From Candidatus Magasanikiibacteriota bacterium (lineage in GTDB: Bacteria; Patescibacteriota; Patescibacteriia; Magasanikbacterales; UBA922): 64,000 nt of DNA. The notes beneath the pieces are model-generated. The model was not told the DNA's origin and made no database searches. It saw only the letters and a list, made by a program, of their open reading frames with translations. This document shows, in pieces, positions 7,771-45,108 of this stretch. The position numbers and the translations under genes were made by a program. Each line of letters starts with the position of its first letter. The first letter of the stretch is position 1. Location of the stretch: NCBI GenBank assembly GCA_016207245.1, contig JACQQA010000012.1, positions 5,722-69,721 on the forward strand. The letters are read 5' to 3'.

Positions 7771-7804
7771 AGCCCTTGACAAGAGGGCTTTTTTGTGGTA
7801 TAAT
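7771..7804 (+). promoter_or_regulatory. Rho-independent terminator hairpin (AGCCCTTGACAAGAGGGCTTTTTT) overlapping a consensus sigma70 promoter (TTGACA-N17-TGTGGTATAAT)
   Basis: TTGACA at 7776-7781, 17-nt spacer, extended -10 TGTGGTATAAT with TATAAT at 7799-7804. The hairpin plus T-run ends the upstream DUF11 gene. Confidence 0.6.
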
Positions 7805-7933
7805 TATCTGTCAATTTATGCCCAAATCGGGTATATTGGCAAGAGGAAGGACCGACGCTCTTTACAATAGATTGGATTCGCCATGTTGGCGAGTCTTGCG
7901 ATTTTCGTAATTTCAAGAAAAGCGAGGTGCGCG

Positions 7934-11782: not shown

Positions 11783-11784
11783 TG

Positions 11785-17111: not shown

Positions 17112-19667
17112 TTATACCACACTTTTCACAATAGTGGTACGCGTCTCCGCCCCAAACTTCTTCTTCAACACTTCTCCAACTCTCACATGCGCCGCGTCAA
17201 CTTCCGCGGATTCGAGTGTCTTGCTGTCTGAACGATAAGTAATGTGATACGCCAGACTCTTTTTACCGGCCGGTAAATTCTTGCCCTCGTAAACGTCAAA
17301 TATTTCCACGCTAGCAATCAGCCGGTCAACTTTTTTAAGCTCAAAAATAATTCGCGCGTGTTCAACTTTTTTATCAACCACAAAAGCAATGTCGCGAATT
17401 ACTTCCGGATAAACCGGCAATGGTTGATAGCGCAAAGAATTTTTTAAAACCAACAATAATTTTTCTAAATCCACTTCCGCCACTACCACTCGCTCGTTAA
17501 TTCCCAAACGCTCGGAAAATGACGGGCTGATCTCGGTAATCGCACCCACGCCTTCGCCATTTACTAAAATTTGCGCCTGCCTGCCCCTGTGGATAACTTT
17601 TCCGAGTTCATGGATTGCCGGCTTTAAAACCACGACACAACCAAGACGATCCAACACACCTGTCAAAGCCGCGGAAAGCTCATAAAATGGCGTTAAAACG
17701 CCTTTACCGGCAAAAACCAGACCCAAATACAGCGGCTGGCCGGGCAATAATTCATCGCTGTTTCCGGAAACCCGCAAACCGGCGACCTCGGAATTAAACA
17801 CTCTGCCGATCTCAAACATTCTTACCGCGTCAAAACGATGCAAATTCACTTCCGCGTTTTCCAACAGGCCGGGCCACAAACTGCGGCGCAAAAACGGACG
17901 ATCTTTAGCCACCGGATTGTCCAACTCTATTAAATCAGCGGGGTCAATTCCCAATCTCTCCAATAATTGTGGCGATACGAAAGAATAGTTATACACTTCG
18001 CTGAAACTAAATTCCAGCGCCAAAATTTCTTTTATTCTTCTTTCTAAACTTCTCAACTCGTTTTTAGGCGGAGGAACAATTGGAAACTTTGGCAATGATG
18101 TTGGAATATTGCCATAACCGTAAATCCGCGCCACTTCTTCCACCAAATCTTCGGCAATGGAAATATCTTTTGTCGCGCGCCAGGTTGGAATTTTAACCAA
18201 CAAAACATCTTTTTTTTCTTTAACTTCAAAATCAAGATCGGATAAAATTTTAACCGCCTGTTTCTTTTCTATTTCCAAACCGATTTTTTTAGATAAAAAC
18301 TCCAGCGGCAATTCAATCGGGCCTTGCTGTAAATGAAAATCTTTCACGTCAATAATTTTACTGGCGATTTTCGCGCCCGGGCACAATTCCAATGTCAATT
18401 CCAGCGCTTTTCGCAAAGCCAGTTCGCAATTGTTCGGGTCCAAACTCTTTTCAAACCGCGCCGAGCTGTCAGTGCGCAAACCAAGTTTGACGGAAGTCCG
18501 GCGCACATTCGCGGCATTAAAATTCGCTGATTCATAAATTACAGCAGTCGTCTCATCTTCAACTCCGCTTTCCCGCCCGCCCATCACCCCGGCCAACGCT
18601 ATCGCCTTATCATTTGAACTAATCACCAAATTCTCCGGTGTCAACTCAAACTCTTTCCCGTCCAAACTAACAAACCTCTCTCCCCCTTCCGCCCTTCGTA
18701 CAACAATCGTGATTTTTGATTTTTGATTTTTGATTTTTGATTTATCAAATGCGTGCATCGGCTGTCCCAAATCCAACATTACATAATTGGTGATATCCAC
18801 AATATTATTTATCGGCCGCAGACCGACTGCCAGCAATTTTTTTTGCAGCCAATCCGGCGACGGCGCGACTTTAATCCCCTCAATCGCCACCGCCATATAG
18901 CGAGGACATAATTTTTTATCCTCAACTCGTACGGACAGGTCGCGACCTGTCCCTATCTTGCAATCTTTAATTTTATAATTCACTAATTTTTTATTAAACA
19001 ACGCTCCCACTTCTCTCGCCATTCCATAATGTCCCCACAAATCCGGCCGATTGGACAAACTTTTGTTGTCAATTTCAAAAATAATGTCATCCAATCCGAG
19101 GACTGCGGACAACGCCTGCCCGCCGATGAGGTGGGGACTACCGACGATTTTGTCATTCCCGTGTAAACGGGAATCCATCGCGTTCGATTTCTGGATCCCC
19201 GCCTCCGCGGGGACGACAAATGAGAGGTCTAGAATCTCTTTCTCGTCTTTTAAGGGAAACCTGTCTCCCAATCCAATCTCGGTTGACGCGCAAATCATGC
19301 CGAATGATTCCACGCCGCGGATTTTCGCTTTTGCCAATTCAACCAATTCGCCTTCGCCGTGCCAGCGCACTTTCGCGCCAATTCTGCCAAACGCGACTTT
19401 CATCCCCTCTTTCACATTTGAGCCGCCGCAAACCACTTGCCAATCTTGCGCGCCGTCATTAACTATACAAACTTTTAACTTATCCGCGTCAGGATGTTTA
19501 ACAACTTTTTTTACCAAACCAACAACAATGTTATCCAAATCTTTTCCTTGCTTAACAATTTTTTCCACCTCCACCGTGCTCATTGTCAATTTCAACGCCA
19601 ACTCTTCCGGAGTGAGAGAGTTTGGCAGATCAATGTATTGTTTGAGCCAGTTAAAACTTATTAACAT
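17112..19667 (-). CDS. pheT: Phenylalanine--tRNA ligase beta subunit
   Basis: 851 aa; N-terminus MLISFNWLKQYIDL and a B3/B4 region (DDIIFEIDNKSLSNRPDLWGHYG). Contains apparent in-frame repeat-element insertions at 19152-19217, 18950-18969 and 18711-18745. Confidence 0.9.
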   Translation of the reverse strand: MLISFNWLKQYIDLPNSLTPEELALKLTMSTVEVEKIVKQGKDLDNIVVGLVKKVVKHPDADKLKVCIVNDGAQDWQVVCGGSNVKEGMKVAFGRIGAKVRWHGEGELVELAKAKIRGVESFGMICASTEIGLGDRFPLKDEKEILDLSFVVPAEAGIQKSNAMDSRLHGNDKIVGSPHLIGGQALSAVLGLDDIIFEIDNKSLSNRPDLWGHYGMAREVGALFNKKLVNYKIKDCKIGTGRDLSVRVEDKKLCPRYMAVAIEGIKVAPSPDWLQKKLLAVGLRPINNIVDITNYVMLDLGQPMHAFDKSKIKNQKSKITIVVRRAEGGERFVSLDGKEFELTPENLVISSNDKAIALAGVMGGRESGVEDETTAVIYESANFNAANVRRTSVKLGLRTDSSARFEKSLDPNNCELALRKALELTLELCPGAKIASKIIDVKDFHLQQGPIELPLEFLSKKIGLEIEKKQAVKILSDLDFEVKEKKDVLLVKIPTWRATKDISIAEDLVEEVARIYGYGNIPTSLPKFPIVPPPKNELRSLERRIKEILALEFSFSEVYNYSFVSPQLLERLGIDPADLIELDNPVAKDRPFLRRSLWPGLLENAEVNLHRFDAVRMFEIGRVFNSEVAGLRVSGNSDELLPGQPLYLGLVFAGKGVLTPFYELSAALTGVLDRLGCVVVLKPAIHELGKVIHRGRQAQILVNGEGVGAITEISPSFSERLGINERVVVAEVDLEKLLLVLKNSLRYQPLPVYPEVIRDIAFVVDKKVEHARIIFELKKVDRLIASVEIFDVYEGKNLPAGKKSLAYHITYRSDSKTLESAEVDAAHVRVGEVLKKKFGAETRTTIVKSVV

Positions 19668-19668
19668 A

Positions 19669-20733
19669 TCAGAATTGTTTTAAAAAACGCAGATCCCCGC
19701 CCTGTAAATGTCTAATATCATCAATACAATACCTTTGCATCACCAAACGAGTCATGCCTAAGCCAAAAGCGAAACCCGTCCATTCTTTCGGATCCAAACC
19801 GCCGTATGCCAAAACTTTCGGATGCACCAGACCGCACGGCATTGTCTCAATCCAGCCTGAATGTTTGCACGCCCCACAGCCAACACCGCCGCAGATCAAA
19901 CATTTTATATCCAATTCAAAACCGGGTTCAACAAATTGAAAATGCCCGGGACGCAAACGCGTCTCAACATCGCGCTTAAACACTCCTCGCAATAATTCCT
20001 TCATCACGCCGATTAGGTGAGAGACAGAAATATTTTTATCCACAACCAAACCTTCCAATTGACAAAAAGTGTGCTCATGCGCCGCGTCAGTCGCTTCGTT
20101 GCGGAAACAACGCCCAGGCACCACCATCCGAATTGGCGCGCCATACTTCTCCAAAGCGCGCACCTGCATAGACGATGTTTGGGTGCGCATTACCCAATCA
20201 GAATGGCTTTTGATATAAAAAGTGTCTTGGGTATCGCGAGCCGGATCGTCAGATGGCATATTAAGCGTGGTAAAATTATAATACTCGCTCTCCAACTCCG
20301 GCCCATCCAGCACCATAAAACCCATGGAAGTAAATAAATCTTCCAAATTATTCTGAACTAAAGTGTTGGGATGCAAATGTCCGGCCTCTTTTGCCGGTAA
20401 CTTTGGCTGAGTAACGTCAATAGTTTCTTTTTCTAAAATATCTCCCATTTCCGACATTTTAATTTCCTCTTTTTTCTTCGCGAACACTTCTTCCAGTTCA
20501 TGTTTAACTTCATTTGCTAATTTGCCAAACTCCTGCCGCGCTTCAACAGAAAGGTCTTTCAAATTTTTCATCGCCTGCGTCAGCTCGCCGGAACGGCGGG
20601 AAAAAAATCTTTGTTCCAATTCTTCCAACTGCAAGACATTCTTAATCTCCACCAAACTCTTCAAAAAATCCTTTTTAATTTTTTCTAATTGTTCCTTCAT
20701 AAATAAAGATACTAATGCTTTTTTATTTGTCAT
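19669..20733 (-). CDS. pheS: Phenylalanine--tRNA ligase alpha subunit
   Basis: Class II motifs FRNEATDAAHEHTFCQLEG and GFAFGLGMTRL. The tracked start at 20733 lies inside a tandem repeat element; the ATG at 20698-20700 (MKEQLEKIKKDF...) is the more likely start. Confidence 0.9.
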   Translation of the reverse strand: MTNKKALVSLFMKEQLEKIKKDFLKSLVEIKNVLQLEELEQRFFSRRSGELTQAMKNLKDLSVEARQEFGKLANEVKHELEEVFAKKKEEIKMSEMGDILEKETIDVTQPKLPAKEAGHLHPNTLVQNNLEDLFTSMGFMVLDGPELESEYYNFTTLNMPSDDPARDTQDTFYIKSHSDWVMRTQTSSMQVRALEKYGAPIRMVVPGRCFRNEATDAAHEHTFCQLEGLVVDKNISVSHLIGVMKELLRGVFKRDVETRLRPGHFQFVEPGFELDIKCLICGGVGCGACKHSGWIETMPCGLVHPKVLAYGGLDPKEWTGFAFGLGMTRLVMQRYCIDDIRHLQGGDLRFLKQF

Positions 20734-20798
20734 TCCCGCGAAAGCGGGAACCCAGAAATCGCGTTGTCATTCCCGCGAAAGCGGGAACCCAGAAATCG
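20729..20798. repeat. Tandem direct repeat (2 x ~37 bp) of hairpin unit GTCATTCCCGCGAAAGCGGGAACCCAGAAATCGCGTT
   Basis: Two near-identical units, each a GTCAT-led hairpin (TCCCGC-GAAA-GCGGGA). Member of the GTCAT...ATGAC hairpin element family. Confidence 0.8.
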
Positions 20799-21130: not shown

Positions 21131-21162
21131 GATTTTTGGATCCCCTTTTTCAAGGGGATGAC
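21131..21162. repeat. Half-copy of the hairpin element (GATTTTTGGATCCCCTTTTTCAAGGGGATGAC)
   Basis: Reverse complement of the first half of the 29690-29755 element; ends in ATGAC. Confidence 0.7.
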
Positions 21163-21192
21163 AAGCCGCTTACTACAGTATATTTAGTATTA

Positions 21193-25042: not shown

Positions 25043-25603
25043 ATGATAATTATAAAACAAAAATTACACCACCGAAAAAATAATCGCCTGCGTGGCTACG
25101 ATTATTCATCGAACGGTTTGTATTTCATAACAATTTGCGTCAAACACCGATTAAAACACCTCGGCGGTGTTTGGAACGCAAAAATGTGCGTCAATCGATT
25201 CGGTTCAATCGTTTTGCAACAATGGAATTGGTTGGCCGAACAATATCCGTATATTATATTGCACGAATTCGTCGTCATGCCAAATCACGTACACGGTATT
25301 GTGCAAATTGATTCATCATTGTTATCGTGTAGGGACAGGTCGCGACCTGTCCCTACACCGAATGCCGACACCACAATCAACCATATAACAAATAAAAAAA
25401 CGAAAATAAAACCATTGTCCGAAATCGTCGGCGCGTTCAAAACCACATCATCAAAATCAATCCATCGGAATGGTTTCCCACAATTCCAATGGCAACGATC
25501 ATTTTACGACCATATTATCCTTGACGAAAAATCATATTTTGCCATCACCAATTATATAAAACAAAATCCCGTCATTTGGTGGCGGGATAGAAATAATTTG
25601 TGA
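25043..25603 (+). CDS. REP-associated tyrosine transposase (RAYT)-like / IS200-IS605 TnpA-family HuH Y1 transposase
   Basis: GYDYSSNGLYFITICVKHR (N-terminal RAYT-like block), HuH motif VMPNHVHGIV and catalytic Tyr block YFAITNYIKQNPV. A 28-bp perfect palindrome (25329-25356) sits between the HuH and Tyr motifs. Confidence 0.7.
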   Translation: MIIIKQKLHHRKNNRLRGYDYSSNGLYFITICVKHRLKHLGGVWNAKMCVNRFGSIVLQQWNWLAEQYPYIILHEFVVMPNHVHGIVQIDSSLLSCRDRSRPVPTPNADTTINHITNKKTKIKPLSEIVGAFKTTSSKSIHRNGFPQFQWQRSFYDHIILDEKSYFAITNYIKQNPVIWWRDRNNL

Positions 25604-27120: not shown

Positions 27121-29673
27121 TTGCGGTGTATGGCTATACCTATGTCTACCAACCCAACCCAGCTTCTGGATCGTTTTTCCACGCATTTGCGCAATGTAAT
27201 CGCCAAAGCCATGACGCTGGCAAATTCTCTTGAACATGACGAGGTGTCGCCTCTGCATCTTTTGTTATCTTTAAGCGAGGAAAAAGGCTCGGTCGGCGCG
27301 GAAGTACTAATACGGTTTAACTTTAATCAAAAATACGCCTTAAACCTGCTTTCGGAAAAACCTCAGTTGCGCCGAAATAAGGGCGACATCGCCATCGCTA
27401 ATCTGCCGGAACTTGACGCTAAAGCCAAACAAGCGGTTGAACGCGCGATTTTAATCGCTTACGAGCGCAACCACCATCATATCGGCACTGAACATTTGCT
27501 GTTTGCTTTGGTCGTCGGACATAGCCAAGAAATTGAAACCGCGCTGAAACAAAATAAAATATCTCTTGAGGATGTTAATAATCAGCTTGATGATATTTTC
27601 CAAAGCACCAGCCGCTTTCCGGAAATTGAAGACGTGTCTAGTGTGATGGAACATTTGGAAGAAATGGTGGGAAAAGAAAATATCGGCGCGCTCCCCCGCC
27701 CGCAACCGCTTGCCGCCAACAGTAAAAATAAAAAACCGCAAATCACGGCTTTGGATATTTTTACCAATAATTTAACTGACAAAGACGCGCAAAAAAATAT
27801 TGATCCGGTCATTGGCCGGGAAAATGAAATTGAGCGGGTAATCCACATTCTCTCACGCCGAACAAAAAACAATCCGGTCTTGGTCGGCGAACCGGGCGTA
27901 GGCAAAACCGCGATTGTTGAGGGATTGGCAAAAAGAATCAGCGAGGGTAATGTGCCTGACATTTTAAAAAATAAAAAAATCTTCGCGCTTGACGTTACTC
28001 TGCTTTTGGCCGGAACGATATATCGCGGTGAATTTGAAGCGCGCCTGAAACAAATCGTGGACGAAATCGCCAAATCGCCGGATTATATTCTATTTATTGA
28101 CGAACTGCACAATATTATCGGCGCCGGCTCCAGCCAAGGCGCGATGGACGCGGCGAATATTTTGAAACCGGCCTTAGCGCGCGGCAACCTGCGCTGTATC
28201 GGCGCCACCACGATTGATGAACACAAAAAATATATCGCTTCCGACCCGGCGCTGGAACGGCGTTTTCAATCGGTCATCATTGATGAGCCGACTGAAGCCG
28301 AAGCTAAAATGATAACGCGCGGAATTAAAAAATATTACGAAGATTATCATAACGTGAAAATCAGCGATGACGCCACGGACGCGGCCGTGGAATTAAGCGT
28401 CCGCTATATCCACGATAATTTTCTGCCGGACAAAGCGATAGATCTGCTTGACGAAGCCTGCGCCGCGGCGCGAACCAAACAAAAACACACGCCGATTGAG
28501 GCGCAAAGACAAAGATTTTTGGCGTTAAAAGAGCGGTGCATAAATTTAAAAATAACCGCGATCAAAAAAGAACAACTGGACGCGGCGTTGGAATTAAAAA
28601 ACGAATTGAAAGAAATAGAAGACCAGATCAGTCTTTTAAATCAAAAAACGGCTAACGCGAAAAAAACCGTCGGCAGTAAAATCACGCGCCAAGACATCGC
28701 CCGCGTGCTGGAGCGGCGGCTGAATATTGGTCTGGAAACAATATTGGCGGATGAATGGAAAAAACTGGCAGACCTGTCAGACAGATTGGAAAAACAAATC
28801 ATTGGCCAAGATGAAGTAATAGGATCAATCATCAAACACCTGCGCCAATCTTATTTGGGTTTGCGCGATCGCAAAAAACCTTTAGCATCTTTTCTTTTTG
28901 CCGGACCGAGCGGGGTTGGCAAAACCGAATTGGCAAAATTGCTGGCGCGCGAACTTTATAATGATGAAAAATCGCTGGTCAAACTTGATATGAGCGAATT
29001 TTCCGAACCGCACAGCACCGCGAAGCTCCTCGGCTCCCCGGCCGGATACATCGGCCACAAAGACCGCAATCGATTTTTGGATGATATCAAACAAAAGCCG
29101 TATTGCGTGGTATTGTTTGATGAAATTGATAAAGCCCACCGCGACGTGGTTAAGTTGCTTTTGCAGATTCTTGACGAAGGGCAGTTGACTGACAGCAATG
29201 GCAAAAAAACCTATTTTAATCACGCGATAATTATCTTAACCACCAATCTCGGCTCGGAATTCTTCAAATCCGCCGGCATCGGCTTTGGCCGGGACGCGAA
29301 AGACACAAAAAATCGCGATCAGACTGTCATTGGCAAATTAAAAGACGAATTTTCGCCGGCGTTGATCAACCGCTTGGATTCGGTGGAAATTTTCTCGCCC
29401 CTCACCCAAGCCGCGGTCGCCAAAATCGTGGAAGCAAACTTGAAGCAGGTCAATGAACAGCTGGGTAAAAATCAACAGCTTAATATCAAGTCCGACCAAA
29501 CCGCGATCGCCTCTTTGGCTTCTGAATCTTTCAGCGAAGAATTCGGCGCGCGGCAGGTGGACAAATTCATCAGAGACGTAATGCAGGAGCTGGTGGTTAA
29601 GATTATGGAAAAAGAAAAAAAGAAAAAAAATTACACTCTCAAGAGAGAAAAGACGGGGTATAGTTTGAGATAG
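27121..29673 (+). CDS. clpC: Clp/Hsp100 AAA+ chaperone (ClpC/ClpB family)
   Basis: Clp N-domain repeats at the N-terminus, two nucleotide-binding domains with Walker A GEPGVGKT and GPSGVGKT, and a short coiled-coil middle domain; 850 aa. Confidence 0.85.
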
Positions 29674-29689
29674 AGGCTTGTCATCCCCT

Positions 29690-29755
29690 TGAAAAAGGGG
29701 ATCCAAAAATCACACACGATGGATTCCCGTTTCCACGGGAATGACAATTCATAAA
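29690..29755. repeat. Complete two-hairpin MITE-like element (GTCATCCCCTTGAAAAAGGGGATCCAAAAATC ... GATTCCCGTTTCCACGGGAATGAC)
   Basis: Terminal inverted repeats GTCAT/ATGAC; each half is a GC-stem hairpin. Lies downstream of clpC. Confidence 0.8.
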
Positions 29756-29768
29756 GCATTAGTATTTT

Positions 29769-30110
29769 ATGCCCGATTTTGAGCAAAAATGGCAGTTGGC
29801 GATGCAGAAGGCAAGACAACAGCAGGTGAAACAAAAAACCGGCGCGCCTTTGGCAACGCAGGAGAAGCAAAATAAAGAAGAAATGGATTATTTTAAACAA
29901 AAAATTTTAAAATCATTCCAACGCGGCGATAAAGAAGAAACTAAAAAAACCGCGGCCGCTCTGATTAAATTGCGCGCAAAATCAGCGGCGATTAAAATCC
30001 AAAAAACCCGCGCCGAGTCCGGATTTTTAAGCGAAGCGACAATTAAAAAAATAGTCGCTAAATATACTCTGGATTGCTTAAGATTAGTCCAATCATTAGG
30101 TTATAAATAA
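29769..30110 (+). CDS. Small basic hypothetical protein, first gene of a tightly packed five-gene operon
   Basis: 113 aa, K/Q-rich, no motif. Its stop and the next start are 1 nt apart. Confidence 0.4.
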   Translation: MPDFEQKWQLAMQKARQQQVKQKTGAPLATQEKQNKEEMDYFKQKILKSFQRGDKEETKKTAAALIKLRAKSAAIKIQKTRAESGFLSEATIKKIVAKYTLDCLRLVQSLGYK

Positions 30111-30111
30111 T

Positions 30112-31443
30112 ATGCCGGAGGAAGGAGAAAAAAACGCACCTGACGTAAAAGCACCGCCGGCATCGGAATGGATGACGCAAATTGAAAATGCTTTGGAAAA
30201 AACCTTGCCGGACTTGCCGCCTGACGCGCTTCGGCAAATTAATGATATTATAAAAAAAACTGTTCAGGGAGAATTAGAAAAATTGCGGGACAGTCTTGCG
30301 GAAAATCCGCCCGAACAAAATTTAGAAGACGCGCTTGATGAATTTGAAGAAGAGGAAGAGCCCGTTAATCAAGCCCTTGATTTTGGCGATGAACTGGAAC
30401 AAGATTACGCCGAATTAGGAATAGAAAACACAGCGGAACCGGAGAATAGTCAAAAATCGCCGCCTCAACCGACCAAAAAACACATTGGGAGGAGAACACC
30501 GGAGCAAACTCCGACTGAACCAGTCGAGTCAGCCGGACAACCGTCGTTGGCAAAAGAAGAATCTACCGAACCATCGCCTGCCTATGTTCCCTCGCCGTCA
30601 ACAGAACCGCAAGAACCGACGGAAACACCACTGCAGACTGATTCAGCCGCTCAACCGAAAGAACCAAGCGGGCCGCAAGAAAAAAAATCAGAAGAAGCGC
30701 GACCAGAAGAGCAGGAAGAAAAACCGGCCGAAAAACTAACAAAAACGCCCGCTAAACAAGAGCAGTCGCAAGAAGAGGTGGAGCCAAAAGATGGGGAGGG
30801 GAAAAAACCGCCGGAGCAATCGCCTGAACAGCCGACTGACAAACAACAAAATAAACAGCCGGACGAACAACAGCCGGAAACAACGCCGGCCGAACAGGAA
30901 ACCGCGCCTCAACAGCAAGAACAGGATCAACAACCGCCTCCGCAGCAGCAAGAGCAGATTAAAGATCTGACAGAAAAACTGCAATTGGCGCAAAAAGACA
31001 CGGGAAAAAAAGTTGATAAAGCGATTAAACCGTTTCAAAAAGAAATCGCGGTTTTAAAAAACGAAATTAAATTGCTGGAAGCGAAAAAAGCCGCCGTGTA
31101 TGTTAAAATGACAATTGCCGCCGCGCGTTATTTCGCGATGCTTGTCATTGCCGCTATCGTATTTATCATCGGGGTTATTTTGAGTCTGTTCGGCATCGGC
31201 GAAGTGCTTATGGGCTGGGCCGCCAAACAAGCAATCAGCGAATCTGCGACTTTCAGCAAAAATATGTTAGAATATAATAACGAACTGCAAAAACTAAACG
31301 CGCAGATAAGAGAAAAGACAGCGAGAATTAAAATTTTGGAAAAGCAAATGATGAACATTCAGCGCGCGGCCAATATAAAATTCGCCGCTTTGCAGGGAAA
31401 AATCGCCGCACGAATTCAACAACTCCACCAGCCTAATCAATAA
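30112..31443 (+). CDS. Hypothetical membrane protein with a long acidic P/E/Q-rich disordered N-terminal region, a single TM helix and a C-terminal coiled coil
   Basis: 443 aa. Residues ~60-300 are low complexity (PEQ-rich, e.g. QQQEQDQQPPPQQQEQ), then the TM helix AMLVIAAIVFIIGVILSLFGIG, then heptad-like repeats. Confidence 0.5.
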   Translation: MPEEGEKNAPDVKAPPASEWMTQIENALEKTLPDLPPDALRQINDIIKKTVQGELEKLRDSLAENPPEQNLEDALDEFEEEEEPVNQALDFGDELEQDYAELGIENTAEPENSQKSPPQPTKKHIGRRTPEQTPTEPVESAGQPSLAKEESTEPSPAYVPSPSTEPQEPTETPLQTDSAAQPKEPSGPQEKKSEEARPEEQEEKPAEKLTKTPAKQEQSQEEVEPKDGEGKKPPEQSPEQPTDKQQNKQPDEQQPETTPAEQETAPQQQEQDQQPPPQQQEQIKDLTEKLQLAQKDTGKKVDKAIKPFQKEIAVLKNEIKLLEAKKAAVYVKMTIAAARYFAMLVIAAIVFIIGVILSLFGIGEVLMGWAAKQAISESATFSKNMLEYNNELQKLNAQIREKTARIKILEKQMMNIQRAANIKFAALQGKIAARIQQLHQPNQ

Positions 31444-31450
31444 AAATAAT

Positions 31451-32677
31451 ATGGATAAAAGAAAAATAATTTTCGCGGGCATATTTCTAGTTATCTGCGT
31501 GGCAGTCGGTTTTCTGCTTTATTGGGTATTTTTCGCTAAGAAAATACCGTCAACAACTACGGGTCAGCCGGGAACGGAAGTCCCGGTTGCCGGCCAATTC
31601 CCTACTGCCGGCGTCGGCCAGCCGACTTTGCCGACTACCAAGCCGGGCAAACTGCCGACCGCGGTAAGCAAACCGATTACGCCGAAAACCGTTACTCCAA
31701 CAGTCAAACCATCTTTCCCAATCACAAACAAAGTTGACAGCTCAATTCTTGGTAGTAGCAAAGACACGGTTGGTTCGGCAAAATTTTATAATACCACTGA
31801 CGGCAGATTTTATCGCTTAAACAAAGACGGTTCAATTGCGTCTTTAAGCGACGAAGTATTTTTTAATGTTCAAAAAGCGACCTGGTCGCCGACAAAAAAC
31901 GAATCTATTATTGAATATCCTGACGGTTCAAACATTTATTATAATTTTGACACAAAAAAACAAGTCACTTTGCCAAAACATTGGCAGGATTTTTCTTTCT
32001 CGCCTTTGGGGGATAAAATCGCCAGTAAAAGCATGGGGCTGGCAACGGAAAATCGCTGGCTCGTTACCGCTGATCCGGAAGGAAAAAGCGTTAAATTAAT
32101 CGCGCCGCTTGGGGAAAACGCTGATAAAGTAACCGTCAACTGGTCGCCGAATAAACAAATCGTAGCCACCTCCGCCACCGGAGACCCGCAGGGAGCGGAC
32201 AAACAAGAAATTTTGTTCGTCGGCTTGCAGGGAGAAAATTTCCGCTCCATTGTCGTGGAAGGCCGCGGATTTGAAAGCCAGTGGTCAACCAGCGGGAAAA
32301 AACTGCTTTACAGCGTCTATAGCGCCAGAAGCAACTTCAAACCGGAACTCTGGATCGTTAACGCCGAAGGCGACAGTATCGGCACTGGCAGAAAAATGTT
32401 AAATTTAAATACTTGGTCGGAAAAGTGCGCGTTCAGCGATGATCGCTTTATTTACTGCGCCGTACCAACGCAAATGCAAACCGGCGCCGGCTTCGCGCCC
32501 GGACTGGCAGATGCCACCAATGATAAAATTTATAAAATAGACACGGAAACCGGCATTAAAACCGAGCTGACCACTGACGGTTACCACACGGTTGACAGCA
32601 TGTTCCTCGGCGATAATAACAAAACGATTTATTTCACGGATAAAAACAGCTCCGGACTATTTAGCGTGCCAATATGA
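31451..32677 (+). CDS. Membrane-anchored TolB-like / WD40-like beta-propeller (PD40) protein with proline/threonine-rich linker
   Basis: N-terminal TM helix, PT-rich linker (TTGQPGTEVPVAGQFPTAGVGQPTLPTTKPGKLPT), then repeated ~40-aa units with DG/SP/DG patterns typical of PD40 blades (e.g. WSPTKNESIIEY, FSPLGDKIASKS, WSPNKQIVATSA). Confidence 0.45.
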   Translation: MDKRKIIFAGIFLVICVAVGFLLYWVFFAKKIPSTTTGQPGTEVPVAGQFPTAGVGQPTLPTTKPGKLPTAVSKPITPKTVTPTVKPSFPITNKVDSSILGSSKDTVGSAKFYNTTDGRFYRLNKDGSIASLSDEVFFNVQKATWSPTKNESIIEYPDGSNIYYNFDTKKQVTLPKHWQDFSFSPLGDKIASKSMGLATENRWLVTADPEGKSVKLIAPLGENADKVTVNWSPNKQIVATSATGDPQGADKQEILFVGLQGENFRSIVVEGRGFESQWSTSGKKLLYSVYSARSNFKPELWIVNAEGDSIGTGRKMLNLNTWSEKCAFSDDRFIYCAVPTQMQTGAGFAPGLADATNDKIYKIDTETGIKTELTTDGYHTVDSMFLGDNNKTIYFTDKNSSGLFSVPI

Positions 32678-33327
32678 TAAAAACCAAACTCCTCGCGGTC
32701 GTTTTTATTCCGGCAATTTTGGTTGCCGGCTTGGCGCTGTTTGTCCGCGTTATTCAATATGAACCGCTCTACCCGGAAATAGATAAAAATAAAGAGGCCG
32801 AAGTTAAAAAAGACAGTCTGATTACTATCCCCATTTATCCAACTGATCCGATTATCGGCGAGAAAAAAGCGCCGCGAACGGTCATTGCTTTTGAAGATTT
32901 CGGCTGTGAACACTGCCAAGCGCAGTTTGCGGTGATTGAAGAATTCATGGCCAAACACCCGGGCACGGTTAAAATAATTTGGAAGAGTTTGCCGGTTACT
33001 AAATTCCCCTATGCCAGCGACACGGCGAACGAATATGCTTACTGTTTGAACGAGCAAAATAAATTCATGGACTTCGCGCGGCTGGCGTTTACTAATAGCT
33101 ATCAATTAAAGCAGGATATCTTAGACGCGATTGTTAAAGAGATTAACGCCAATGAAAAAAAACTTAGCGCCTGCGTCCAATCCGGAACCGCGAAACAACA
33201 AATTGAGCGGGTTAAAGAAATCGCGCGATTGTTGAATATTCAAGCCATCCCCGCGATATTTTTAGACAACAAACAAGTCAACCCGCCGGCGACAGTGGAG
33301 GGGTGGGAGGCGATGATGAGGCTGTAA
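32674..33327 (+). CDS. DsbA-like thioredoxin-fold thiol:disulfide oxidoreductase
   Basis: N-terminal TM anchor and CEHC active-site motif (FEDFGCEHCQAQF) in a thioredoxin-like context. Overlaps the upstream gene by 4 bp. Confidence 0.6.
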   Translation: MIKTKLLAVVFIPAILVAGLALFVRVIQYEPLYPEIDKNKEAEVKKDSLITIPIYPTDPIIGEKKAPRTVIAFEDFGCEHCQAQFAVIEEFMAKHPGTVKIIWKSLPVTKFPYASDTANEYAYCLNEQNKFMDFARLAFTNSYQLKQDILDAIVKEINANEKKLSACVQSGTAKQQIERVKEIARLLNIQAIPAIFLDNKQVNPPATVEGWEAMMRL

Positions 33328-33380
33328 CGCCCGTCGCCATGGTGTCATTACTTATTTTAATGCCTCTTTCGGTATGTTAG

Positions 33381-33428
33381 AAAGGGATCCCTCGGCTCTC
33401 CCGCCATGGCGGGATCGCTCGGGATGAC
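33381..33428. repeat. Partial hairpin element containing perfect palindrome CCCGCCATGGCGGG and an ATGAC terminus
   Basis: GGGATCCCTCGGCTCTCCCGCCATGGCGGGATCGCTCGGGATGAC. Same CCCGCCATGGCGGG core as at 3008-3021, 36836-36849 and 47163-47176. Confidence 0.7.
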
Positions 33429-33443
33429 AATGCCAAGAATCTT

Positions 33444-34877
33444 ATGAAAAAAATCTTCCTCGGTATTTTTTTAGCAATGTTTTTCCTGCTCCCATCAAAC
33501 AGCGCTTCTGCCGGGACACTCTCCATTGGCTCTCCATGTGAAGGTAACGGCGAATGCGCGAGCAACCAATGCGAAAACAGCTCTAAAACCGATCCCGAGG
33601 ACAAAAAGCTGGCTTTTTGCGTTTGCGGAGAATTTGACACATCAATAATAAACCCTGCCGGCAGTCCGAACTGCAAAGAAGCTTACGGCGGTTCTGAAGA
33701 TGACTGGACATGCAAAGACGGCGCCAATATGACCTGGGACTTAAATTACTGTTTAAATAAAGATTACAGCAAAACCAAATTTGCCATTCCCGTGAAAGAA
33801 ACCGGCGCCAGCACTGAAACAATTGTTGACATGTTGCTTGATCCATCGGCGGTAACCGCGAATATGTTTAAGGAGATTGATAACATCGTGGCAAAACCGA
33901 CAGTAAAAATTTCCATTCCCGGCCTAAAATTTTCCGAACCAAAAACCGTTGAAGAATCTGGCGGAAAATTCTTATATATCCCCTTTCTCGGCGACTATAT
34001 ATCATCCCTTTATAAATATCTAATCATTGTCGCGAGTATTATCGCGACCGCGATGATAATAAAAGCCGGATTTGATTGGCTGATGTCCGGCGGCGAAGCG
34101 GAAAAAATCACTCATGCCAAAACCCGCATCGGCCAATCGCTCATGGGGCTTTTCATCGCCGTGTCTTCGTATTTTATTTTATACACCATCAACCCGAATC
34201 TGGTGGAATTTAAAAATCTGCGGGTGAGGTACGTAGAGACAATACCTTTAGCGGAAGATTCTATCACTACCGAAGAGGCCGCGGAACAGGCTGGTGGAAC
34301 AATTTCAACGCCTTCCGGGAACATTCCGATTCCCACTACAGTTGTTTGCGATAATCCAACTGCCGCAGGTACCGGATTAGTGCCGCTGGAGCCGTCCGTG
34401 GGACTAAAACTACCTGCTAAATCAACCGCTTTTCTTAACCCCCAAGCGGCTGAAGCGTTAAAAAAAGCAGGGGCGATCGCCGCCAATGAAGGATACCTGT
34501 TGCAAGTCACTTCCGCCTGCCGCACGACAGCCACCCAAGCTAAAAAAGCCGCGGAAAGCCCGAGTAGTGTTGCTGCAGGCACCATCGCGCATCCGGGTAA
34601 TTCTCCGCACGGGTTTGGCATTGCTGTTGATATTCAATTAAAAAAAGATGGCGTAGTATTGGTGCCATCTGGTGGTTCAGAATCCCAGTGTAAAATAAAT
34701 CCCGCGTATGTAAGAAAACTTTCAGAAATTATGTATACCGCGGGGTTTTACCGCTTGGGGATTGAAAATTGGCATTTTGAACTACCGCCGAAAAACAATT
34801 ATTGCCGCGTAAAAAATAAATACGATCCGGCCCCATGCCGCGTTGGCAACAATAAAGTGCCGTGCATTACCAAATAA
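33444..34877 (+). CDS. Secreted chimeric protein: Cys-rich N-domain, pilin-like TM hairpin, C-terminal M15 (VanY-type) D-Ala-D-Ala carboxypeptidase domain
   Basis: Signal peptide MKKIFLGIFLAMFFLLPSNSASA; an 8-Cys segment; two TM helices separated by a short loop (YLIIVASIIATAMIIKAGFDWLMSGGEAEKITHAKTRIGQSLMGLFIAVSSYFILYTI); then the zinc-ligand motifs SPHGFGIAVD (SxHxxGxAxD) and ENWHFE near the C-terminus. Confidence 0.6.
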   Translation: MKKIFLGIFLAMFFLLPSNSASAGTLSIGSPCEGNGECASNQCENSSKTDPEDKKLAFCVCGEFDTSIINPAGSPNCKEAYGGSEDDWTCKDGANMTWDLNYCLNKDYSKTKFAIPVKETGASTETIVDMLLDPSAVTANMFKEIDNIVAKPTVKISIPGLKFSEPKTVEESGGKFLYIPFLGDYISSLYKYLIIVASIIATAMIIKAGFDWLMSGGEAEKITHAKTRIGQSLMGLFIAVSSYFILYTINPNLVEFKNLRVRYVETIPLAEDSITTEEAAEQAGGTISTPSGNIPIPTTVVCDNPTAAGTGLVPLEPSVGLKLPAKSTAFLNPQAAEALKKAGAIAANEGYLLQVTSACRTTATQAKKAAESPSSVAAGTIAHPGNSPHGFGIAVDIQLKKDGVVLVPSGGSESQCKINPAYVRKLSEIMYTAGFYRLGIENWHFELPPKNNYCRVKNKYDPAPCRVGNNKVPCITK

Positions 34878-36247
34878 GCGATATGAAAAGCGGTAATAAT
34901 ACAATCTTCATCTGCTCCAACTGCGGCGCCCAATACCAAAAATGGACGGGTAGATGTTTAGAGTGTGGAAAATGGGGAACCGTCGTTGAACAGAATGCAG
35001 AATACAGCGAACAGAAAGCAAACGAAAAGAATTATGCACCGACTAAAACAATTAAATTATCAGAAATTAAAGGAGAAAATGTAAAAAGACAGCAGACGAA
35101 TTTGGCTGAATTTGATCGGGTGTTGGGCGGCCCTTCGACAAGCTCGGGGCAAGGCGGGATTGTGCCGGGGAGTTTAATTTTGCTGGGCGGAGAACCGGGA
35201 ATCGGCAAATCAACCTTGGCAATTCAATTGGCCGCAATAATACCAAACACGTTATATATTTCCGGCGAAGAATCCGTGGAACAAATAAAATTACGCGCTG
35301 AACGTCTACGGCTTACGGCTTCTAGCTTACGGCTGGCCAATGAAACATTGGTGGAAAAAATCTGCGCCACGATTAAAGAAACAAAATCGCCGTTGGCGAT
35401 AATTGATTCCATCCAAACAATTTATTCCGACGAAGTTCCCGGTGAACAAGGCAACATCAATCAAATTAAAGCCTGCGCGGTAAAACTTTTGGAAACCGCG
35501 AAATCAACCAACACCGCGATAGTCATTGTCGGCCACGTGACCAAAGACGGCGAGGTCGCCGGACCAAAAACCTTGGAACATTTGGTTGATGTTGTTCTTT
35601 ATCTTGAAGGCGAGCGCTATCATCAATATAGAATTTTAAGAACGGTAAAAAACCGATTTGGCCCGACTGATGAAGTGGGTATTTTTGAAATGAAAGAAAA
35701 TGGCTTGCAGGAAGTAAAGAATCCTTCCGCCAGTTTTCTTTCCGAACGCGGAGAAAATATGCCGGGAAGCGTTGTTACTTGTTTGTTGGAAGGAACGCGT
35801 CCGCTGTTGGTGGAAATTCAAGCGCTGGTAAATAAAACATCATTCGGCTATCCGGTGCGCAAAGCCAGCGGGTTTGATTTGAATCGTCTGCATGTTTTAA
35901 CCGCGGTTTTGCAAAAACGCGCCGGCTTGAATCTGGCGCAATATGATATTCATCTCAATGTTGTCGGCGGCATCACTGCCGACGAACCCGCGGCTGACTT
36001 GGCTGTTTGTCTCGCCATCGCCAGCGCTTACAAAGATAAAAAACTCGGCGCGGATTTAGCTGTCTTCGGCGAGGTCGGACTCGGCGGCGAAGTGCGCGGC
36101 GTTACGCAAATTGAAAAAAGAGTGAGAGAGTGCGAGAAGTTAGGAGTGAAGAGGGTGATTACACACCTAAATACGCAAGCACTTAAACACTTAAACATCA
36201 AAGTGACAGATGTGAAGAACATACAGGAGCTGATAAGACAGACGTAA
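34862..36247 (+). CDS. radA: DNA repair protein RadA (Sms)
   Basis: Zinc finger CSNCGAQYQKWTGRCLECGKWG, Walker A GGEPGIGKSTL and a Lon-like C-terminal domain. The probable start is M at ~34883. An in-frame repeat-derived insertion (PSTSSGQG) lies at 35133-35158. Confidence 0.85.
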   Translation: MHYQISDMKSGNNTIFICSNCGAQYQKWTGRCLECGKWGTVVEQNAEYSEQKANEKNYAPTKTIKLSEIKGENVKRQQTNLAEFDRVLGGPSTSSGQGGIVPGSLILLGGEPGIGKSTLAIQLAAIIPNTLYISGEESVEQIKLRAERLRLTASSLRLANETLVEKICATIKETKSPLAIIDSIQTIYSDEVPGEQGNINQIKACAVKLLETAKSTNTAIVIVGHVTKDGEVAGPKTLEHLVDVVLYLEGERYHQYRILRTVKNRFGPTDEVGIFEMKENGLQEVKNPSASFLSERGENMPGSVVTCLLEGTRPLLVEIQALVNKTSFGYPVRKASGFDLNRLHVLTAVLQKRAGLNLAQYDIHLNVVGGITADEPAADLAVCLAIASAYKDKKLGADLAVFGEVGLGGEVRGVTQIEKRVRECEKLGVKRVITHLNTQALKHLNIKVTDVKNIQELIRQT

Positions 36248-36377
36248 AAGTGAAGAGTTGTTAAATTGTTGAACCCCCAAAGAATTAAACCCGCAATCAT
36301 CTCAAAAAAAATTTAAGATAATTGTGGGTGGCAACGCAGTATTTTTTCCTCCTTTCTTCACCACCCACCACTTCACC

Positions 36378-36536
36378 CTACGAGGGCCACACCGGCGACA
36401 ATCCAACGGCCCCCCAGAACCAATTGCCTTCAGTTGGTGTTTGATGACCGGACTTGCCCTCCTGCTGGAAAAGATCCTCCCGGGCCGGCTCCTGCGAACC
36501 GTCCCCGCTCTGACGAACCTGTTCTTCCTGCGTCAT
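36378..36536 (-). CDS. Small acidic hypothetical protein (52 aa), second gene of a two-gene mini-operon in the GC-rich islet
   Basis: SD AAAAAGGAGGG precedes ATG (MTQEEQVRQSGDGSQEPAREDLFQQEG...). The tracked 123-aa ORF is an upstream extension in a frame overlapping the previous gene. Confidence 0.35.
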   Translation of the reverse strand: MTQEEQVRQSGDGSQEPAREDLFQQEGKSGHQTPTEGNWFWGAVGLSPVWPS

Positions 36537-36577
36537 TTCACTTCCCTCCTTTTTCATCTCTCTCTGCCAGATGACCA

Positions 36578-36781
36578 TCATCTGACCTGCTGCATCGACT
36601 TTCCGAGCGTCAGTCTCTCCACCTTCTGTCCGAACCCGTTCAGTCCCGCGAGAATTTTTTTCTGCGCTTCCGGCACGTATTCCGTGCCTTTGCCATCCAA
36701 ATGGCCTTCCTCGCAGAACCGACCGTTTGGCTGCACAGCAGCCCCGCACTTAGCGCATCTCCTCGGCCTCTTCTTTCCCAT
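36578..36781 (-). CDS. Small zinc-ribbon protein (67 aa) in a GC-rich islet
   Basis: Strong SD (AAAGGAGGGG) 5 nt upstream of the ATG. Sequence MGKKRPRRCAKCGAAVQPNGRFCEEGH fits the CxxCG...FCxxxG zinc-ribbon pattern. The tracked 91-aa ORF is an upstream extension. Confidence 0.45.
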   Translation of the reverse strand: MGKKRPRRCAKCGAAVQPNGRFCEEGHLDGKGTEYVPEAQKKILAGLNGFGQKVERLTLGKSMQQVR

Positions 36782-36835
36782 TACCCCTCCTTTTTTGTAA
36801 TTAACATATACTGCGTTGCCTCGCCACGCCGTAGT

Positions 36836-36924
36836 CCCGCCATGGCGGGACAAAAGCGGGCATTGTAAAGAACGAACGACTGGATTGCTTAGTCAACGCC
36901 TCATCGGCGACTCCTCGCAATGAC
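36836..36924. repeat. Hairpin elements: palindrome CCCGCCATGGCGGG (36836-36849) plus half-element CTGGATTGCTTAGTC...CTCCTCGCAATGAC (36880-36924)
   Basis: Related to the right half of the 23973-24067 element. A terminator-like hairpin (AAAACCCCGCTTTTTCAGCGGGGT) follows at ~36931-36958. Confidence 0.7.
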
Positions 36925-43743: not shown

Positions 43744-45108
43744 TCAATCCTTTTTTTGTTTATATTCCGGCGGAGAAATCTGCAAATCAATCCGGTTTAA
43801 GTCGCGCGGGAACAGCGTGGCGTATTTGATATTATCAATATCCAGCAGTTTGGCGGTCATGCGCTCCAAACCGATTGCCAGCCCGCCTTCCGGAGGCATG
43901 CCATATTTAAACGCCTCCAAATAAAACTCAAATTTTTCCGGCTTTAAGCCCCACTTTTTAATATTGGCAACCAACTGATCATAATCATTAATACGCTGAC
44001 CGCCGGTGGTCACCTCTACCCCGCGGAAAAGCAGATCAAAACTCTTGGTAAATTCCGGATCGGTTTCATCAGGATAAGTATACATTGGACGTTTGACGGT
44101 TGGATAATGCGTTACAAAAACAAAATCCGACTGAAATTTTTTCTTTGCATACTCACAGATCCATTTTTCTTCATTCGGTTCTAAATCAGGCTCTTTGGTG
44201 TGGTCAATTTTTGTTTCTTGTTTAATTATTTCCTGCGCCTCGCGTAATTTGAAAACCGGTATTTTTTCCGGCAATTCCGGACGAATATAATTTAATAATT
44301 TTAATTCCCGCGCGACTGTTTTATCCAGATGATCCAACAAAAAGCGCAAAAATTTTGTTTCCAATTCCATGACATCGGTATGGTCTTTTATCATGCCAAA
44401 TTCCAAATCCAAACTGGTATATTCATTTATATGACGCGTAGTGGCATGCTCCTCGGCGCGGTAAACATTGCCGACCGTGAACACGCGCTCAAACGCGCCA
44501 ACCATTATTTGCTTATAAAACTGCGGACTTTGCGCCAAATATGCTTTGGTATCAAAATATTTAATTTCAAAAACATTGGAGCCACCCTCGGTGGAATCAC
44601 CAACGATTTTTGGACACTGAAATTCAGTAAAACTTTCACCGCGCAAAAATGCCCGAAACGCTTCCACGATTTCGCTCTGCACCTTAAACACTGCACGCCA
44701 CTTTTCAGAGCGCAATGTGAGCGGTAAATTATCCAAATGCACGTCTAAACCGATTTTCTCGTCCTCTAAATCCAACGGCAGTGGCTCGGCTTTTGCCAAC
44801 ACTTTAAATCCTTTTGCCAACACCTCAATTTCGCCGGTGGCCAAATTCGGATTAATATTTTTTACCCCGCGTTTATTTACCAGACCCTTGATTTCAACTA
44901 CATACTCGCTATGAACGTCTTTAAGTAAATCATAATCCACGCCCAAATCATTTGGCACGCAAACTACCTGGACTAAACCGGCGCGGTCGCGCACATCCAA
45001 AAACACAATTTTGCCCAAATTGCGTCTAGTCTGCACCCAGCCGGCGATAGTTACTTCTTGGCCGACATGATTGACATTAAGTTCTCCGCAAGTGTTTGTA
45101 CGATTCAT
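43744..45108 (-). CDS. aspS: Aspartate--tRNA ligase, short archaeal/eukaryal-type (class IIb)
   Basis: Anticodon-binding OB fold (FLDVRDRAG), the AspRS-specific QSPQFYKQ motif and motif 3 GGLAIGLERMTAKLL. 454 aa rather than ~590. Confidence 0.8.
   Translation of the reverse strand: MNRTNTCGELNVNHVGQEVTIAGWVQTRRNLGKIVFLDVRDRAGLVQVVCVPNDLGVDYDLLKDVHSEYVVEIKGLVNKRGVKNINPNLATGEIEVLAKGFKVLAKAEPLPLDLEDEKIGLDVHLDNLPLTLRSEKWRAVFKVQSEIVEAFRAFLRGESFTEFQCPKIVGDSTEGGSNVFEIKYFDTKAYLAQSPQFYKQIMVGAFERVFTVGNVYRAEEHATTRHINEYTSLDLEFGMIKDHTDVMELETKFLRFLLDHLDKTVARELKLLNYIRPELPEKIPVFKLREAQEIIKQETKIDHTKEPDLEPNEEKWICEYAKKKFQSDFVFVTHYPTVKRPMYTYPDETDPEFTKSFDLLFRGVEVTTGGQRINDYDQLVANIKKWGLKPEKFEFYLEAFKYGMPPEGGLAIGLERMTAKLLDIDNIKYATLFPRDLNRIDLQISPPEYKQKKD

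Follow-up and report, generated by a model that had tools for sequence, protein, structure and literature searches.

A β-propeller, a DsbA-like oxidoreductase and a pilin-anchored peptidoglycan hydrolase encoded between clpC and radA in Candidatus Magasanikbacteria: a possible detached accessory module of the Patescibacteria type IV secretion system

To shed light on the potential functions of five tightly packed genes for predominantly membrane-associated or secreted proteins, we analyzed a 64,000-nucleotide (nt) stretch of DNA, hereinafter the window, from Candidatus Magasanikiibacteriota bacterium (assembly GCA_016207245.1, contig JACQQA010000012.1, positions 5,722-69,721, forward strand), which covers part of the source genome only. 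The closest matches of the window are to Candidatus Magasanikbacteria, members of the class ABY1 of the Patescibacteria, or candidate phyla radiation (CPR), and the rest of the window is occupied by housekeeping genes, such as those for DnaE, PheST, TsaD, ParAB, SecY, aminoacyl-tRNA synthetases and RecO. The five open reading frames (ORFs) delineated in the initial annotation of the window are all confirmed on the plus strand, with unchanged coordinates: g1 (29769-30110; 113 amino acids (aa)), g2 (30112-31443; 443 aa), g3 (31451-32677; 408 aa), g4 (32674-33327; 217 aa; its start overlaps the stop codon of g3 in the sequence ATGA) and g5 (33444-34877; 477 aa). Only 1 nt separates g1 from g2 and 7 nt separate g2 from g3, whereas g3 and g4 overlap by 4 nt and 116 nt lie between g4 and g5. 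The assignments made originally, namely, an acidic, disordered membrane protein (g2), a propeller (g3), a CxxC thioredoxin fold (g4), and a protein combining a Cys-rich region, a VirB2-like hairpin and an M15 peptidase (g5), all held at the domain level. Upstream, on the same strand, lies clpC (27121..29673), which encodes a ClpC/ClpB-type AAA+ chaperone (Pfam domains Clp_N, AAA, AAA_2 and ClpB_D2-small), and downstream, also on the plus strand, radA (34883..36247), which encodes RadA/Sms (Zn_ribbon_LapB, AAA_25 and Lon_C).

The g5 protein has a composite architecture. The cleavable signal peptide (aa 1-23) is followed by an extracytoplasmic N-terminal domain with eight cysteines (C32-C103; together 33444..33773, plus strand), recognized from the sequence and the Cys positions; this domain is retained in a subset of the homologues and yields only faint defensin/nodulin-like matches. 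The conserved core (33894..34247, plus strand), delineated with Pfam family PF18895 and an AlphaFold (AF2) model, consists of a β-hairpin motif (KISIPGLKFS...LYIPFLGDYI), a two-helix membrane hairpin and the terminal sequence INPNLVEFKNLRV. The helices span residues 182-214 and 219-249 (predicted local distance difference test (pLDDT) score of ~80), and the loop between them, SGGEAEKITHAKTRIG, is basic, carrying K, K and R; the hydropathy segments of the hairpin are present in all relatives. The C-terminal cassette (34232..34877, plus strand) comprises a low-complexity linker and a VanY/LdcB-type M15 domain (aa ~326-459, nt 34419-34820), identified through the Pfam VanY profile (29.7 bits, E 6e-7; gathering threshold 25), Foldseek, and alignment with LdcB/YodJ (4ox3). 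The best Foldseek matches are LdcB (4mph/4jid/4ox3), VanY (5hnm), Ply500 and VanX; those to LdcB and VanY have a probability of 0.98-1.0, with E-values of only ~4e-3 and a medium-confidence model. The M15 motifs, the possible degeneration of which was a concern from the outset, align to LdcB and VanY and are intact: S357xxR360, H389-x6-D396, which aligns to the SEHQTGLAMD motif of YodJ/LdcB (4ox3), and E441xxH444 (E441-N-W-H444). With these motifs, the M15 domain appears to be catalytically intact. The sequence also directly supports a predicted topology in which g5 is exported by Sec and the basic loop of the hairpin is cytoplasmic; because this loop would face the cytoplasm, both flanking domains are predicted to be located outside.

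The core places g5 in a large protein family. PF18895 (T4SS_pilin) is matched by 16 of 18 homologues, by 34 of the 44 syntenic relatives and by 65 of the 85 cluster representatives (E <= 1e-3; best 2e-17). A profile built for the subfamily matches pilin-domain proteins of the locus L007, both small and large and including a plain 130-aa pilin, at about 1e-14 to 1e-23; L007 is a genuine type IV secretion system (T4SS) locus that encodes VirB4-like, TraC-like, PrgI and TrbL_3 proteins. The subfamily is marked by the motif KI.IPGL.FS ... YIPFLGEYI before helix 1 and by the core end INPNLVEFKNLRV. These profile matches identify the g5 hairpin as a predicted member of the T4SS_pilin/VirB2-like family. 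In an exhaustive search, the core profile reached E <= 1e-30 with 226 cluster representatives and E <= 1e-10 with 6681; the best 150 are, with few exceptions, 300-937 aa long and, because of this length, are taken to be fusions. Four proteins (P0170, P0183, P0228 and P0234) contain three to six tandem pilin-core stretches within one polypeptide.

The domains fused to the core are diverse. In the syntenic loci, the partners are SLT (10), GDSL (6), VanY (6), Amidase_2 (4), C39_2 (3), M15 (3) and M15_4 (2), and also M23, Exo_endo_phos and Metallophos; among the 85 unbiased cluster representatives, they are M15_4 (12), Amidase_2 (11), SLT (11), C39_2 (10), GDSL (7) and VanY (7) and, more rarely, CHAP (3), NlpC/P60 (2), M23 (2) and GH18 (1). 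Almost all of these domains are peptidoglycan hydrolases, with the GDSL esterases often paired with SLT, and the architectures include GDSL-core-SLT, core-SLT-GDSL, core-M23-SLT, Metallophos-core-VanY and core-Amidase_2. Comparison with close relatives locates the point of exchange: the DNA match of the window to L009 (91% nucleotide identity in clpC) and to L001 is uninterrupted as far as 34231/34246, that is, the last codons of the g5 core. The match to L001 resumes in radA at 34895, and the L009 contig ends before radA. In L009, the closest relative, a C39 peptidase takes the place of VanY, and an identical C39 is found in L011, whereas the VanY cassette is common to the window and the more distant L003 but not to the closer L009 and L001. 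This incongruence between relatedness and cassette implies recombinational replacement at a fixed junction. Thus, the enzymatic domain of g5 is an interchangeable cassette that is replaced by recombination just after the conserved core. In L001/L010, the g5 homologue and radA are separated by an inserted AAA_14/DUF4143 ATPase gene (11362-12777), and a 50-nt fragment of the radA 5' region is duplicated there (compare 34895-34950 in the window); a gene of the AAA_14/DUF4143 family is present elsewhere in the window (56831-58042).

The AF2 model of g3 (pLDDT 85.8) shows a transmembrane (TM) helix (residues 3-27), a disordered P/T linker (34-83) and 28 strands that make up seven blades; the propeller spans aa ~88-408 and contains an invariant pair of cysteines, C326/C336. 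Judging from this model, g3 is most likely a membrane-tethered, extracytoplasmic seven-bladed propeller distinct from TolB. The original label, "TolB-like propeller", thus survives with respect to the generic propeller fold only and not with respect to TolB itself: the assignment to TolB was rejected given a TIGR02800 score of 20.3 bits against a cut-off of 343, the lack of the TolB N-terminal domain, and the retrieval by Foldseek of generic propellers only (tricorn, oligogalacturonate lyase and WD40 proteins). Neither tol nor pal genes were found near g3. With 2050 homologues and 50-65% identity among the best 120 of these, g3 is the best-conserved member of the locus and is apparently single-copy. 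A metagenome scan with the propeller of L032 yielded a single 1.2-kb contig.

The g4 protein matches the Pfam families Thioredoxin_4 (86.5 bits, 3e-24; gathering threshold 23.2) and DSBA (37.6 bits; gathering threshold 25.6), as well as BdbD, DsbA-like and ScsC proteins in the PDB, and contains the CxxC motif C78-E-H-C81. On these grounds, it is predicted to be a membrane-anchored DsbA/BdbD-like thiol-disulfide oxidoreductase. No re-oxidizing partner (DsbB, BdbC or VKOR) was noticed among the scanned ORFs of the window, which is only a part of the genome. In relatives, g4 follows g3 with an overlap or at a distance of a few nucleotides, and a DsbA-like gene adjoins the pilin-core gene in most of the examined loci (it is absent in L039, L041 and L043); such genes are found near pilin-core genes even in some loci that lack g3. 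The pilin-core proteins contain 6-26 cysteines each, with 14 in g5, and these counts, together with the adjacency of the DsbA-like genes, fit the earlier suggestion that the oxidoreductase services the Cys-rich component.

The gene order is widely conserved. The arrangement PGM (minus strand), ClpC, g1, g2-like, g3, g4, one or two pilin-core genes and RadA was detected in ~20 species of Magasanikbacteria, and the clpC...radA order persists down to roughly 40-50% ClpC identity; the genes are therefore conserved together in related genomes, the point on which the proposal of a common system had been made to depend. Outside the Magasanikbacteria, g3 orthologues share 35-60% identity and the same architecture, and their context is strikingly different. 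In six loci (L032, L038, L039, L040, L042, which comes from Komeilibacteria, also members of ABY1, and L043), the module is linked to T4SS genes. The 5' part of these operons encodes, on one strand, a large membrane protein, PrgI (VirB3-like), a TraC-like/TrsD protein and a VirB4-like ATPase; then come a TM protein of ~190 aa, a second protein that has a disordered N-terminal part and C-terminal TM helices and, often, a 320-400-aa pilin-core protein; and at the 3' end are the propeller, usually DsbA, and a fusion of a pilin-core protein with SLT or M15_4, with RadA and/or RecG often next. This arrangement is found in 6 of the 7 non-Magasanikbacteria contexts with readable upstream sequence, the exception being the falkowbacterial L041, with the order LemA-M48-g3-GDSL fusion-RadA. 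The g3-g4-pilin-core trio thus stays together in T4SS operons, in the LemA-M48 context of Falkowbacteria, and beside dnaA in L036, and radA adjoins the module in both the Magasanikbacteria and the T4SS-linked loci. The view that no described system has this composition is accordingly not supported for the trio, which in these six loci forms the 3' end of Patescibacteria T4SS operons. The ~190-aa protein encoded after VirB4 in the six loci possesses an N-terminal TM segment or lipobox, an N/T-rich linker and a conserved domain with the signature FxERYGS[FY]S...TTQR.E...W.V; it might be a VirB8/PrgL-like component, and the protein encoded next to it might be an analogue of g2. In the published survey of Patescibacteria T4SS, ABY1 loci commonly include radA and recG (PMC12102498), and the genome GW2011_GWC2_37_14 (L013), from a member of the Magasanikbacteria with the same clpC...radA layout as the window, was scored VirB4-positive (PMC12102498); the text of the survey mentions neither a thioredoxin/DsbA nor a propeller (PMC12102498). 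The simplest history would be that Magasanikbacteria kept the radA-proximal part of the T4SS operon at its original site, with the core genes located elsewhere. No second pilin-core gene was found in the window.

The two upstream genes stand apart from the trio. The g1 product is a basic, helical, cytoplasmic protein (K+R 0.22) with no match in Pfam, NCBIfam or the PDB, including a PDB profile search. A profile of 11 homologues matches only the ORF after ClpC in Magasanikbacteria loci and the C-terminus of ClpC in L028; g1 occurs only after ClpC, frequently abutting or overlapping it. In L028 (1972-4761), the g1 homologue is read in frame as a C-terminal extension of a 929-aa ClpC ORF, which represents either a true fusion or a lost stop codon and in both cases points to a ClpC-related role. 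From these profile matches, g1 is more likely to be a partner of ClpC than an envelope component, and it would drop out of the cell-envelope set in which it had been included. The first 300 residues of g2 are dominated by a few amino acids (D+E 0.24, P 0.14, Q 0.13), and a 38-residue hydrophobic stretch (aa 333-370, nt 31108-31221) is flanked on either side by coiled-coil-like segments. We predict a membrane protein in which an acidic, P/E/Q-rich disordered N-terminal region of 300 aa precedes a hydrophobic hairpin that lies between two coiled coils. This gene diverges fast, and a gene of similar architecture (an acidic low-complexity N-terminal part and a C-proximal hydrophobic segment) precedes g3 in most readable loci; an iterative profile of the C-terminal part of g2 recruited 10 Magasanikbacteria loci and no protein from the T4SS loci. 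All database matches of g2 (TrbJ and holin-like families) are far below the cut-offs. An assignment to TrbJ/VirB5 was rejected as a coiled-coil artefact, with TIGR02780 scoring 24.6 bits against 100.55 and covering the TM/coiled-coil part only. Both g1 and g2 are specific to Magasanikbacteria. In a more distant member of this lineage (L004), a Y1 transposase gene (7444-8082) occupies the position of g1-g2 between ClpC and g3, so that the linkage of g3-g4-g5 does not require g1 and g2.

The limits of the transcription unit also require revision. In ~20 related loci, clpC is located directly 5' of g1 on the same strand, and it abuts or overlaps g1 in L005, L014, L015 and L023. At the other end, radA could start at GTG 34862, with a 16-nt overlap with g5, or at ATG 34883, 5 nt past g5, and the g5-radA junction is likewise abutting or overlapping in relatives. 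The shared strand and the tight junctions agree with co-transcription, as originally proposed, but not with an operon closed at five genes, given that, in relatives, the linkage of clpC and radA is just as tight. Because the junctions are tight at both ends, the unit would extend from clpC through radA; on the strength of this layout, the operon is probably longer than five genes, and clpC is probably its first gene. Promoter- and terminator-like sites detected by consensus scans are no more common than in shuffled sequence, and an Rfam scan of the window revealed only tRNAs.

The two longer gaps of the locus contain short palindromic repeats. The window carries two mostly intergenic families resembling repetitive extragenic palindromic (REP) elements, one of the TTGTCATTCCCGCGAAAGCGGGAA type and the other with the CCCGCCATGGCGGGA core. 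The clpC-g1 gap contains two REP-like copies (29672..29747; TTGTCAT[C/T]CCC...GGG[A/G]ATGACAA; families D4/D5 and I1-I3), further copies of which are located at 19150-19221, 20706-20798 and 21131-21170; the motif GGGAWTGACAA occurs 15 times against 3.0 expected. In the g4-g5 gap, there is a copy with the CCCGCCATGGCGGGA core (33385..33432; family D7), a family that is represented at 2999, 33390, 36826 and 47154; a D7-type element in reversed orientation lies within the clpC-g1 gap of L003. The repeat is missing in the g4-g5 gap of relatives (43 nt in L001 and 4 nt in L005). What had been described as a hairpin element before g5 is, then, one copy of a dispersed repeat, and a regulatory structure was rejected given its dispersal, its absence in relatives, and a predicted fold no better than that of shuffled sequences (z -0.18). 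A weak match to Y1_Tnp (IS200/REP-associated tyrosine transposase (RAYT)-like) is found in an ORF at 25043-25603, and it could form a REP/RAYT pair with the palindromic repeats.

Taken together, the assigned domains, the topology elements, the conserved gene order, the T4SS linkage seen in other lineages and the breakpoints of the cassette lead us to favor, with moderate confidence, the interpretation that g3-g4-g5 is a detached accessory module of the monoderm-type T4SS of Patescibacteria, to which g1 and g2 are lineage-specific additions. From these observations, we infer a physical association of the module with a T4SS in this organism, as well as what the hydrolase acts on, what the propeller does and how the DsbA-like protein relates to its substrates. 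Under this scheme, g5 would be exported by Sec and inserted into the membrane through its VirB2-type hairpin, such that the Cys-rich N-terminal domain and the M15 domain face the cell wall. Held at the T4SS by the VirB2-type anchor, g5 would act as an equivalent of VirB1 that cuts or trims peptidoglycan locally, where the T4SS or a pilus-like structure crosses the wall. The g4 protein could form the disulfides of g5 and of the conserved Cys pair of g3, and g3 could be a scaffold, an assembly partner or a chaperone of the pilin-domain proteins, with the enzymatic domain of g5 being exchanged as a cassette by recombination. Several observations weigh against this scheme. The 64-kb window contains no VirB4, PrgI, TraC-like or VirB6 gene, nor do the ±9 kb around the ~20 Magasanikbacteria loci, and, with no T4SS core genes nearby, the module could therefore work without a T4SS in this lineage, in a locus that is set among housekeeping genes. 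No homology was detected between g1 or g2 and the two proteins encoded after VirB4 in the T4SS loci. The match of g5 itself to PF18895 (21.0 bits, E 3.5e-4) is below the gathering threshold of 26.6; a PDB profile search with the pilin core gave no meaningful match; and the full-length model of g5 is of low confidence (pLDDT 58.7), with only the hairpin and the M15 domain being usable. Finally, a VanY/LdcB-type domain may only trim stem peptides rather than open the wall.

Some of the same facts could be accommodated by a housekeeping autolysin system, in which the hairpin is a mere membrane anchor, the products of g3-g4-g5 remodel the wall of their own cell during growth or division without any secretion system, and clpC...radA is a stress/maintenance operon. 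In Magasanikbacteria and in the falkowbacterial L041, housekeeping genes indeed surround the module, and T4SS genes are absent from its vicinity; LdcB and VanY are classical wall-maturation enzymes; the strong conservation and apparent single-copy status of g3 would be in keeping with such a role; and small genomes need at least some autolysins. However, the bond specificity of the enzyme differs between close relatives, as would be uncommon in an autolysin devoted to growth or division; the hairpin that serves as the anchor belongs specifically to the T4SS_pilin family and is flanked by a conserved motif; and six loci have orthologous modules inside T4SS operons. We therefore consider this explanation rather improbable. 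It is far less plausible still that the five genes are unrelated neighbors that share a strand in a compact genome and display nothing beyond general synteny. Close relatives are syntenic over the entire LemA...RelA region, and g1 seems to be tied to ClpC, with the in-frame fusion in L028, but the trio of g3, g4 and the pilin-core gene persists in quite different surroundings, the 4-nt overlap joins g3 to g4, and the DsbA-like genes track the pilin-core genes even without g3. Fortuitous clustering is thus largely refuted for g3-g4-g5, less so for g2 and least for g1.

A further possibility is that the target is the wall of a host cell: the pilin-hydrolase fusions would be minor subunits, incorporated into a T4SS pilus or attached to its surface, that bring wall-degrading enzymes to the host envelope, with cassettes tuned to host peptidoglycan. 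The replacement of VanY by C39 between relatives with 91% clpC nucleotide identity and the sharing of VanY with the more distant L003 rather than with L009 and L001 would be compatible with such tuning, as would the presence of two different fusions in many loci. The GDSL esterase-SLT pairing fits an attack on O-acetylated walls and, like the one Exo_endo_phos and one Metallophos domain, is not needed for opening the cell's own wall; furthermore, both termini of the hairpin are predicted to be outside the membrane, which is compatible with surface display, and the T4SS and pilins are essential for epibiotic growth in Saccharibacteria. Against this stand the lack of evidence of polymerization, the expected crowding of a filament by domains of 150-400 aa at both ends of each subunit, and the absence both of a small major pilin beside the fusions in ABY1-type loci and of an immunity gene. 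Moreover, modular variety of hydrolases is also typical of self-directed VirB1-type enzymes, and therefore cassette diversity alone is no proof of a host-directed role. We regard a weapon of this kind as unlikely. In its fullest form, which we put forward only as a speculation of similarly low probability, the hairpin would be a genuine pilin module, and the T4SS would assemble the fusions into an "armed" pilus or wall-spanning conduit that shows interchangeable wall-degrading enzymes to the host; these candidate enzymes would be carboxy- and endopeptidases, amidases, lytic transglycosylases, O-acetyl esterases and, occasionally, phosphoesterases, with g3 serving as an assembly platform or adhesin and cassette exchange tracking the wall chemistry of the host.

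Several other features of the window deserve mention. An 838-aa Cys-rich repeat protein (7883-10399) contains six matches to Dicty_CTDC repeats (7e-40) and is encoded in a stretch of locally raised G+C content (0.56 versus about 0.45); the adjoining gene (5847-7700) encodes a 617-aa DUF11/CARDB surface-type protein, and the two are likely to be a surface or adhesin pair. The gap between radA and ndk (36330-36860, minus strand) contains overlapping ORFs on both strands without family matches, including, on the minus strand, a possibly frameshifted one for a zinc-ribbon-like peptide (RCAKCGAAV...GRFCEEGH); nothing credible was detected by Rfam in this gap. Two paralogous genes for class II (Asp/Asn/Lys-type) aminoacyl-tRNA synthetases are located about 3 kb apart on the minus strand (43744-45108 and 48133-49452), and a full-length match to the inner-membrane protein CreD (50994-52406; 1e-154) is unexpected in a reduced CPR genome.

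In the one Patescibacterium that is genetically tractable, epibiotic growth requires the T4SS and its VirB2-like pilins. The published T4SS survey reported few VirB1 homologues, with most VirB2-bearing Patescibacteria lacking VirB1, and suggested that the pilus needs none. The Patescibacteria T4SS, its VirB2-like pilins and its radA/recG neighborhood have already been described; in the searchable literature, we found no report of the fusion of a pilin module to interchangeable wall hydrolases, of the conserved propeller-DsbA pair or of the detached clpC-radA version of the module. If our preferred interpretation, that of a T4SS accessory module, is correct, the pilin-like proteins of ABY1 and related lineages carry the wall-hydrolase function as a fusion and are accompanied by a dedicated DsbA and a conserved propeller; this would name three previously unremarked candidate T4SS components and explain part of the "missing VirB1". 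It would also provide handles (enzyme specificity, disulfide dependence and propeller partners) on how ultrasmall bacteria breach walls, their own or those of the host. Should the "armed" pilus exist, it would represent a type of contact-dependent apparatus, for feeding or attack, that has not been described for any T4SS.

The relationships of the module to known systems can be traced component by component. With the VirB2/TrbC pilins and PF18895, the g5 family shares the signal peptide, the two-helix hairpin with a short basic loop, profile-level homology and the location of orthologues inside T4SS operons; the differences are the size (300-900 aa rather than about 100-130), the fused enzyme, the extra β-hairpin motif before helix 1, and the presence of one or two copies per locus instead of arrays of 2-11 small pilins. 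The M15 domain of g5 and the LdcB/VanY enzymes (MEROPS M15B) have in common the fold, the H-x6-D and H zinc ligands, and the catalytic E-x-x-H as well as the S-x-x-R motif, but in g5, this domain is a C-terminal cassette on a pilin-like anchor and is followed by a Cys-rich tail (C454, C465 and C474). The propeller g3 resembles the propellers of TolB (Tol-Pal) and PilY1 types in being an extracytoplasmic PD40/WD-like β-propeller encoded beside envelope machinery; it departs from TolB in having seven blades and a TM helix with a P/T tether, with neither the TolB N-terminal domain nor Tol/Pal partners. The F-like T4SSs encode a dedicated disulfide catalyst together with Cys-rich extracytoplasmic components. 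Compared with their thioredoxin-fold proteins (TraF and TrbB) and with the Gram-positive DsbA/BdbD, g4 matches the BdbD/DsbA-like structures and is of the N-terminally membrane-anchored DsbA/BdbD type, with CEHC in its active site, rather than a DsbC-like periplasmic isomerase. Candidate functional parallels are the VirB1-type hydrolases of monoderms, namely, PrgK of pCF10, TraG of pIP501, TcpG of pCW3 and CwlT of ICEBs1, a group for which modular hydrolase variety is typical, PrgK having the architecture LytM-SLT-CHAP. The g5 family and these enzymes alike are membrane-anchored, modular, multi-domain wall hydrolases encoded in T4SS loci; the relatives of g5 carry SLT, M23, CHAP, NlpC/P60 and amidase domains, as VirB1-type enzymes do, and the M23-SLT order in L029 is that of PrgK. 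What sets g5 apart is the VirB2-like two-helix hairpin that serves as the anchor, with extracytoplasmic domains possible on both sides, the VanY/LdcB-type M15 enzyme, and a location that is not beside virB4.

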